Positions 36,711 through 42,513 of a DNA stretch of 64,000 nucleotides are shown in pieces. The notes under the pieces are model-generated. The model was not told the origin of the DNA, did not search any database, and saw only the letters and a program-made list of their open reading frames with translations. Source of the stretch: Escherichia coli (lineage in GTDB: Bacteria; Pseudomonadota; Gammaproteobacteria; Enterobacterales; Enterobacteriaceae); assembly GCF_030013205.1 (NCBI RefSeq), contig NZ_CP122648.1. One strand, 5' to 3'. The position numbers and the translations under genes are program-made. Positions within the stretch are counted from its first letter, which is position 1. Every line of letters starts with the position of its first letter.

Positions 36711-37745
36711 ATGAGTAACGCGATTACGATGGGGATATTTTGGCATTTGATCGGCGCGGCCAGTGCAGCCTGTTTTTACGCTCCGTTCAAAAAAGTAAAA
36801 AAATGGTCATGGGAAACCATGTGGTCAGTTGGTGGGATTGTTTCGTGGATTATTCTGCCGTGGGCCATCAGCGCCCTGTTACTACCGAATTTCTGGGCGT
36901 ATTACAGCTCGTTTAGTCTCTCTACGCTGCTGCCTGTTTTTCTGTTCGGCGCAATGTGGGGGATTGGTAATATCAACTACGGCCTGACCATGCGTTATCT
37001 CGGCATGTCGATGGGGATTGGTATCGCCATTGGTATCACGTTGATTGTTGGTACGCTGATGACGCCAATTATCAACGGCAATTTCGATGTGTTGATCAAT
37101 ACCGAAGGTGGACGCATGACATTGCTCGGCGTTCTGGTGGCGCTGATTGGTGTAGGGATTGTGACTCGCGCCGGGCAGTTGAAAGAGCGCAAGATGGGCA
37201 TTAAAGCCGAAGAGTTCAACCTGAAAAAAGGGCTGGTGCTGGCGGTGATGTGCGGCATTTTCTCTGCCGGAATGTCCTTTGCGATGAACGCCGCAAAACC
37301 GATGCATGAAGCCGCTGCCGCACTGGGCGTCGATCCACTGTATGTCGCTCTGCCAAGCTATGTTGTCATCATGGGCGGCGGCGCGATCATTAACCTCGGT
37401 TTCTGCTTCATTCGTCTGGCAAAAGTGAAGGATTTGTCGCTAAAAGCCGACTTCTCGCTGGCAAAACCGCTGATCATTCACAATGTGTTACTCTCAGCAC
37501 TGGGCGGGTTGATGTGGTATCTGCAATTCTTTTTCTATGCCTGGGGCCACGCGCGTATTCCGGCGCAGTATGACTACATCAGCTGGATGCTGCATATGAG
37601 CTTCTATGTATTGTGCGGCGGTATCGTCGGGCTGGTGCTGAAAGAGTGGAACAATGCAGGTCGCCGTCCGGTAACGGTGTTGAGCCTCGGTTGTGTGGTG
37701 ATTATTGTTGCCGCCAACATCGTCGGCATGGGCATGGCGAATTAA
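36711..37745 (+). CDS. rhaT: L-rhamnose-proton symporter
   Basis: 344-aa polytopic membrane protein at the rha locus. Confidence 0.93.
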
Positions 37746-38590
37746 TCTTTCTGCGAATTGAGATGACGCCACTGGCTGGGCGTCATCCCGGTTTCCCGGG
37801 TAAACACCACCGAAAAATAGTTACTATCTTCAAAGCCACATTCGGTTGAAATATCACTGATTAACAGGCGGCTATGCTGGAGAAGATATTGCGCATGACA
37901 CACTCTGACCTGCCGCAGATATTGATTGATGGTCATTCCAGTCTGCTGGCGAAATTGCTGACGCAAAACGCGCTCACTGCACGATGCCTCATCACAAAAT
38001 TTATCCAGCGCAAAGGGACTTTTCAGGCTGGTCGCCAGCCGGGTAATCAGCTTATCCAGCAACGTTTCGCTGGATGTTGGCGGCAACGAATCGCTGGTGT
38101 AACGATGGCGATTCAGCAACACCACCAACTGCCCGAACAGCAACTCTGCCATTTCGTTAGCAAACGGCACATGCTGACTACTTTCATGCTCAAGTTGACC
38201 GATAACCTGCCGCGCCTGCGCCATCCCCATGCTACCTAAGCGCCAGTGTGGTTGCCCTGCGCTGGCGCTAAATCCCGGAATCGCCCCCTGCCAGTCAAGA
38301 TTCAGCTTCAGCCGCTCCGGGCAATAAATAATATTCTGCAAAACCAGATCGTTAACGGAAGCGTAGGAGTGTTTATCGTCAGCATGAATGTAAAAGAGAT
38401 CGCCACGGGTAATGCGATAAGGGCGATCGTTGAGTACATGCAGACCATTACCGCGCCAGACAATTACCAGCTCACAAAAATCATGTGTATGTTCGGCAAA
38501 GACATCTTGCGGATAACGATCAGCCACAGCGACTGCCTGCTGGTCGCTGGCAAAAAAATCATCTTTGAGAAGTTTTAACTGATGCGCCAC
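37742..38590 (-). CDS. rhaR: AraC-family regulator RhaR (GTG start chosen; ORF track extends to 38701)
   Basis: AraC C-terminal HTH; GTG at 38590 gives ~282 aa and removes the overlap with rhaS. Confidence 0.85.
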
Positions 38591-38663
38591 CGTGGCTACC
38601 TCGGCCAGAGAACGAAGTTGATTATTCGCAATATGGCGTACAAATACGTTGAGTAGATTCGCG

Positions 38664-39500
38664 TTATTGCAGAAAGCCATCCCGTCCCTGGCGAATATCA
38701 CGCGGTGACCAGTTAAACTCTCGGCGAAAAAGCGTCGAAAAGTGGTTACTGTCGCTGAATCCGCAGCGATAGGCGATGTCAGTAACGCTGGCCTCGCTGT
38801 GGCGTAGCAGATGTCGGGCTTTCATCAGTCGCAGGCGGTTCAGGTAACGCTGAGGCGTCAGTCCCGTTTTCTGCTTAAGCTGCCGATGTAGCGTACGCAG
38901 CGAAAGAGAAAATTGATCCGCCACGGCATCCCAATTCACCTCATCGGCAAAATGGTCCTCCAGCCAGGCCAGAAGCAAGTTGAGACGTGACGCGCTGTTT
39001 TCCAGGTTCTCCTGCAAACTGCTTTTACGCAGCAAGAGCAGTAATTGCATAAACAAGATCTCGCGACTGGCGGTCGAGGGTAAATCATTTTCCTCTTCCT
39101 GCTGTTCCATCTGTGCAACCAGCTGTCGCACCTGCTGCAACACGCTGTGGTTAACGCGCCAGTGAGACGGATACTGCCCATCCTGCTCTTGTGGCAGCAA
39201 CTGATTCAGCCCGGCGAGAAACTGAAATCGATCCGGCGAGCGATACAGCACATTGGTCAGACACAGATTATCGGTATGTTCATACAGATGCCGATCATGA
39301 TCGCGTACGAAACAGACCGTGCCACCGGTGATGGTATAGGGCTGCCCATTAAACACATGAATACCCGTGCCATGTTCGACAATCACAATTTCATGAAAAT
39401 CATGATGATGTTCAGGAAAATCCGCCTGCGGGAGCCGGGGTTCTATCGCCACGGACGCGTTACCAGACGGAAAAAAATCCACACTATGTAATACGGTCAT
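38664..39500 (-). CDS. rhaS: AraC-family regulator RhaS
   Basis: 278-aa translation [25 protein letters not shown]. Confidence 0.92.

Positions 39501-42513
<3,013 letters not shown>

Follow-up and report, generated by a model that had tools for sequence, protein, structure and literature searches.

Conserved sequence features place the probable start of Escherichia coli rhaR at a GTG codon 73 nt downstream of rhaS

Introduction

Translation of rhaR in Escherichia coli very probably starts at a GTG codon at position 38590, to which we assign a probability of roughly 0.93 on the basis of comparative sequence analysis. Initiation at this codon, guided by a GAGGT Shine-Dalgarno (SD) sequence, would yield a protein of 282 residues whose gene begins 73 nt after the rhaS stop codon. 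Positions throughout are those of the window, the 64,000-nucleotide stretch of E. coli contig NZ_CP122648.1 that was analyzed. The initial annotation had favored this downstream GTG over the start of the longest open reading frame (ORF) as the likelier start of RhaR, and the choice is supported by conservation of the start codon and the SD sequence, by RefSeq, by the NCBIfam models and by a construct in the PDB. Since the reference annotation, the curated family models and the crystallized construct already use the GTG start, the result carries little biological weight of its own; the downstream start is the correct but already accepted annotation, and the question an ordinary, solved one. A rhaR gene taken from the longest ORF or from ab initio prediction (312 residues) nevertheless adds 30–37 spurious residues to expression constructs, residue numbering and alignments.

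Transcription from PrhaSR covers the tandem rhaS and rhaR genes together. RhaR was numbered on a 312-residue form in the original sequence papers and in later genetic work, and curators subsequently shortened the entry. Co-transcription of the two genes from PrhaSR is restated in PMC9429829, where L-rhamnose-dependent activation of PrhaSR is described for E. coli RhaR. A full-text search of the literature returned nothing explicit on the N-terminus or start of RhaR, or on an internal rhaR promoter.

Results

The ORF map showed that the region contains the E. coli rhamnose regulatory locus (Table 1). Both this map and the RefSeq tables place rhaR 3' of rhaS, divergent from rhaBAD and convergent with rhaT, which is the genomic context of a RhaR equivalog. 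The longest ORF in the rhaR frame extends from a GTG at 38701 to 37742 on the minus strand and encodes 319 residues; because it starts at 38701, it overlaps rhaS across 38664–38701, a stretch of 38 nt. The initial annotation had described this 319-residue ORF, its reach past the rhaS stop at 38664 and the 38-nt overlap, and the map confirmed all three to the base. Its coordinates for the in-frame GTG at 38590, the 282-residue product and the 73-bp spacer (38663–38591) were right as well. We found two further features that it had not mentioned, namely an in-frame ATG (38680–38678), which would give 312 residues and a 17-nt overlap with rhaS, and the GAGGT SD sequence upstream of the GTG at 38590. 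The codons that follow this GTG are GCG CAT CAG TTA AAA (AHQLK...).

At the other end of the gene, the convergent rhaR (minus) and rhaT (plus) have the 4-nt palindrome TTAA (window 37742–37745) in common, so that the TAA stop codons of the two genes overlap, and the same 4-nt overlap is seen in RefSeq. When window positions 37700–38760 (1,061 nt) were used as a megablast query against complete E. coli genomes, the locus was found in 5,419 of 5,426 genomes, one of which was identical over the whole query.

Table 1. Coordinates of genes, translation signals and conserved spacer elements at the rhaS–rhaR junction.
Feature	Position in window	Strand	Basis
rhaT	36711–37745	plus	ORF map
rhaB	from 39788	plus	ORF map
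rhaS CDS, 278 aa, stop TAA 38666–38664	38664–39500	minus	ORF map and RefSeq
rhaR CDS as supported, GTG start, 282 aa, 849 nt, stop TAA 37744–37742	37742–38590	minus	ORF map, RefSeq, NCBIfam
Probable rhaR start codon, GTG	38588–38590	minus	Codon conservation in 80 loci; PDB 5U93 chain A
Predicted Shine-Dalgarno GAGGT for rhaR	38598–38602	minus	Anti-SD duplex; conservation in orthologues
rhaS–rhaR intercistronic spacer, untranslated, 73 nt	38591–38663	minus	No coding signature; intergenic in RefSeq
37-codon extension of the longest ORF, judged spurious; includes ATG 38680–38678	38591–38701	minus	No homologue has the extension
Imperfect inverted repeat TAACGcGA-N6-TCAcCGTT from the rhaS stop (E. 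coli: TAACGCGAATCTACTCAACGTA)	38645–38666	minus	Alignment of 64 spacers
AATAAT block, consensus GCnAATAAT	38621–38626	minus	Nearly invariant columns 41–46

We compared the junction across Enterobacteriaceae in a set of 80 species-representative genome loci drawn from the matches listed, with RhaR orthologues of 70–98% identity from Citrobacter, Salmonella, Enterobacter, Klebsiella, Raoultella, Kluyvera, Kosakonia, Lelliottia, Trabulsiella and other genera. At the codon homologous to the GTG at 38590, 67 loci had GTG and 10 had ATG (77/80 together); in the other 3/80 a GTG lay one codon downstream. The GAGGT preceding it in E. coli, about 6–7 nt before the GTG, is predicted to form a duplex of −7.2 kcal/mol with the 3' end of 16S rRNA. 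Each of the 80 orthologues carried this SD signal, with duplex energies from −9.1 to −5.1 kcal/mol (median −6.9), whereas internal positions gave a background of −2.4. GAGG or GGAG was positioned 6–8 nt from the start in 73 of the 80 loci.

Upstream of the conserved start, the frame was closed within 30 nt in 66/80 loci. The arrangement is not that of a translationally coupled overlapping gene pair, as the upstream frame was shut within 72 nt, before reaching rhaS, in 76/80 loci, and the spacer measured 71–155 nt. Among the 80 loci listed, L003, a near-E. coli locus, and three Klebsiella/Raoultella loci were the only ones whose frame continued into rhaS without a stop, and among the sequences compared the frame was open over the whole extension only in Escherichia (the window and L001–L003) and three Klebsiella/Raoultella loci. 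Of 81 sequences (the window and the 80 loci), 72 had an in-frame stop among the 24 spacer ‘codons’ that separate the rhaS stop from the GTG, and the peptides that these ‘codons’ would encode were unrelated. The spacer gave a flat profile of column entropy by codon position (0.85/0.92/1.08), as opposed to strongly periodic profiles for rhaR codons 12–91 (0.20/0.08/1.04) and the rhaS 3' end (0.43/0.37/1.12). Spacer lengths were 71, 72, 73, 74, 79, 80 and 83 nt, and 88–155 nt with insertions, with no preservation of the reading frame; 61 of the 83 sequences counted had a spacer of 71–74 nt. The initial annotation had suggested examining the upstream 37 codons in other species, and had named amino-acid conservation with synonymous variation as the pattern that would speak against the GTG start. 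In our comparison these codons were not conserved as protein.

Orthologues from Citrobacter, Salmonella, Enterobacter, Kluyvera and Leclercia, predicted independently by several pipelines, were 282 residues long. A search of 1.84 billion cluster representatives for distant relatives returned full-length proteins at 51, 42, 42 and 36% identity, which, like the paralogue RhaS, start within ~5 residues of the N-terminus given by the GTG. Neither these relatives (36–51% identity) nor the paralogue RhaS aligned to the extension in this search. The relative at 51% identity (L087) shows the same rhaB-rhaS-rhaR-rhaT order, in which rhaS is followed by a 12-nt gap (ccGGAGcgtccg) and then an ATG.

In RefSeq, rhaR is an 849-nt CDS separated from rhaS by 73 nt in every annotated stretch of this kind that we retrieved, which came from the strain identical over the query, an EC600 transconjugant, K-12 MG1655, O157:H7 and another strain. 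In a sixth strain, which is without rhaS, rhaR is still an 849-nt CDS in RefSeq. The two NCBIfam equivalog models for RhaR (HTH-type transcriptional activator RhaR), NF010025 and NF010027, have 282 positions, and the protein as a whole scored above the cut-off of each (572.1 bits vs 525 and 564.3 vs 384, respectively). Residues 39–318/319 of the 319-residue ORF aligned to model positions 2–281/282; model position 1 therefore corresponds to the GTG codon, residue 38 of the ORF. Matches in the PDB were to the RhaR N-terminal domain and to the DNA-binding domains of AraC, SoxS and MarA. Chain A of entry 5U93, the RhaR N-terminal domain, starts MAHQLK, a construct that follows the start annotated by the depositors and does not prove the terminus in vivo. 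Precomputed Pfam assignments on the orthologues (PF02311, PF07883, PF12833 and PF00165) showed an N-terminal cupin (AraC_binding) domain and a C-terminal double HTH, the architecture of the sugar-responsive AraC/XylS class.

Two observations on database and genome records were made along the way. The E. coli RhaR entries P0004 (397 residues, 16 member sequences) and, judging by its length, P0003 (399 residues) are ~85 residues too long at the C-terminus, and P0004 departs from RhaR near ...SVVFT and continues as unrelated sequence, as a frameshift would give. In E. coli NCTC9064 (L086), an IS1A copy at 788–1545 occupies the place of rhaS and of the remaining upstream region. The junction of this copy falls inside the spacer, directly upstream of CGAATAATCAAC, and rhaR, left with 53 nt of its native upstream sequence, is still annotated from the GTG.

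The open frame in Escherichia can be traced to the nucleotides beside the SD sequence. Most genera have tTGAGGT-N6-GTG, with the TGA in frame at −12. One extra base is present between the SD sequence and the GTG in Escherichia, where GAGG lies 8 nt from the start instead of the usual 7, and this base moves the TGA within the ancestral tTGAGGT to another frame. By chance, the E. coli spacer has no other in-frame stop, and the frame is left open. A locus labelled E. coli E69 (L004, 93% identity) has a 72-nt spacer and still carries the in-frame TGA, indicating that the long ORF is a recent accident of one lineage. Judged from these alignments, the 319-residue ORF and its 312-residue version from the ATG at 38680 are artefacts of the longest-ORF rule, and they show clearly how a single-base indel beside an SD sequence can open a misleading upstream frame within a single lineage.

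The spacer (window 38591–38666, minus strand; around 1915–2003 in L004–L082) contained nucleotide motifs that are invariant across genera of Enterobacteriaceae, and no coding signature. These motifs occur in the order inverted repeat, T-run/A-run segment, GCnAATAAT, GGTTAT and SD sequence. In an alignment of 64 spacers, the invariant columns of the inverted repeat were A2, A3, C4, G5, G7, T15, C16, C19 and G20, and the repeat was retained where rhaS stops a few codons earlier, as in Kosakonia, Phytobacter and Pseudescherichia (L030, L056, L069 and others). The AATAAT block forms the 5' arm of a hairpin in some genera. REP-like palindromic units (GCCGGATG...CATCCGGC) are inserted in the spacer of Citrobacter and Salmonella (L005–L018), and Klebsiella indica (L076) carries an unrelated insertion of ~80 nt at the same place; in each of these loci the spacer lies at about 1850–2000. 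The insertions fall between the AATAAT block and the SD module and lengthen the spacer to 88–155 nt; despite them, the 5' module stays fixed beside the rhaS stop.

A separate block with the consensus CCtTaATTACTATt was conserved across genera in the 5' untranslated region of rhaS (window 39532–39545, minus strand), between the −10 region of PrhaSR and the rhaS SD sequence. To our knowledge, no function has been described for this block.

Discussion

Our analysis points to a simple sequence of events, in which translation of RhaS would terminate at the TAA at 38666–38664 and ribosomes would initiate RhaR anew 73 nt downstream at the GTG at 38590, guided by GAGGT at 38602–38598, to give the 282-residue protein (M)AHQLK.... 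We infer that initiation of RhaR is independent of rhaS translation and not coupled to it. A non-ATG start persists in 70 of the 80 species, suggesting that there is selection for modest synthesis of RhaR, which the conserved start codon would keep low.

Could E. coli alone use two starts, making a minor 312-residue isoform from the ATG at 38680 beside the main 282-residue product? The frame is indeed open and intact in all the E. coli and near-E. coli sequences compared (the window, L001–L003 and L083–L085), and the ATG has some SD-like context. We consider dual initiation very unlikely, however, as we saw no sign that the extension is under selection; polymorphism within E. coli amounted to only 1–3 SNPs across the 161-nt junction, a diversity too low to test constraint. 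Moreover, one of the few polymorphisms in the extension, present in O157, changes Leu to Phe in that frame, and L004, though labelled E. coli (93% identity), has a spacer shorter by 1 nt and an in-frame TGA.

If the ATG at 38680 were the only start, RhaR would have 312 residues and its gene would overlap rhaS by 17 nt. This older reading, which ab initio gene callers also choose, appears less probable still. ATG is the preferred start codon, the purine-rich AGGGACGGG run upstream of it is predicted to pair with the 16S rRNA at −7.8 kcal/mol, and many E. coli database entries have 312 residues (P0001 and P0005), with P0001 (MVFCNN...) representing a cluster of 7,172 sequences. This run, however, consists of the rhaS codons for ...QGRDG and abuts the ATG with zero spacing. 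The ATG itself is formed across GAT GGC, the Asp-Gly codons of E. coli rhaS; other genera have different rhaS codons there and lack an ATG at the homologous position. In most genera the extension is interrupted by in-frame stops or frameshifts; it is covered by no homologue or family model, and its ATG is not used by RefSeq. Initiation at the GTG at 38701, to give 319 residues, has in its favor only that no other start codon of the open frame precedes this one, and its likelihood is negligible given the lack of an SD sequence (−2.2 kcal/mol), its position inside rhaS, and the comparative arguments against the ATG at 38680, all of which apply here too.

It is conceivable, though in our view rather unlikely, that the rhaS–rhaR spacer of ~72 nt is a non-coding regulatory module specific to Enterobacteriaceae and not a passive gap. 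Such a module may comprise the TAACGnGA-N6-TCAnCGTT repeat at the rhaS stop, a T-run/A-run hairpin and GCnAATAAT, and it looks like a lineage-specific gain, since rhaS and rhaR are only 12 nt apart in the relative at 51% identity.

The spacer may serve as an internal promoter that drives rhaR and depends on an activator. Its inverted repeat, AACGcGA-N6-TCAcCGTT, is similar to the PrhaBAD CRP site, AACGTGA-N6-TCACAgTT, and if AATAAT is taken as a −10 hexamer, the center of the E. coli repeat falls at −41.5, the geometry of a class II activator. With a position weight matrix (PWM) built from orthologous PrhaBAD CRP sites, 66% of spacers scored above the 99th percentile of control windows at one fixed position, but the absolute scores were poor (a median of −4.3 out of a possible 38.8, and −23 for the E. 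coli spacer), and the E. coli copy of the repeat matched only 6 of 10 core positions. These matches hint only faintly at a CRP site in the spacer. A scan of the E. coli spacer for sigma-70 promoters and intrinsic terminators found none. We also considered remnants of RhaS/RhaR half-sites, as GTAACGAGAAGG is common to the spacer and the promoter-proximal RhaS half-site of PrhaBAD, and rejected them on PWM scores; matrices from orthologous half-sites gave scores at or below zero on the spacers (medians of −8.8, −14.8, −11.6 and −0.4, with possible maxima of ~28–35).

Alternatively, the spacer may act as an intercistronic RNA element that sets the ratio of RhaS to RhaR. Two hairpins drawn by hand showed modest covariation, G-U pairs on the sense strand included, with 72.5% and 76.6% of cells paired as compared to 30–60% with slid partners. 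These hairpins folded strongly in some genera only (z of −1.9 to −3.5 in 5 of 12, E. coli and Klebsiella not among them), and folding of the E. coli spacer was no better than that of shuffled sequence (z = +0.35). RNAalifold returned no pairs and no consensus structure for the spacers, and an Rfam search of the spacer gave chance-level matches only.

The arrangement proposed here is that of E. coli K-12, where rhaR (RefSeq WP_001336056.1) has the same start codon, spacer length and rhaB-rhaS-rhaR-rhaT neighborhood as in the window. The 161-nt junction of K-12 differs from that of the window by one base, and the RhaR proteins are 99% identical, with a few amino-acid differences that leave the start site unaffected. 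The 312-residue models of RhaR (P0001 and P0005) share the frame and the C-terminal 282 residues of the RhaR of the window, but begin at the ATG at 38680 inside rhaS, and their extra 30 residues have no counterpart in orthologues or family models. RhaS, the tandem paralogue in the AraC/XylS family, has a cupin-type AraC_binding domain and two HTH motifs like RhaR, to which it is 34% identical, and its N-terminus aligns with the N-terminus of RhaR as read from the GTG. Unlike rhaR, however, rhaS has an ATG start and a stronger SD sequence (−10.3 kcal/mol).
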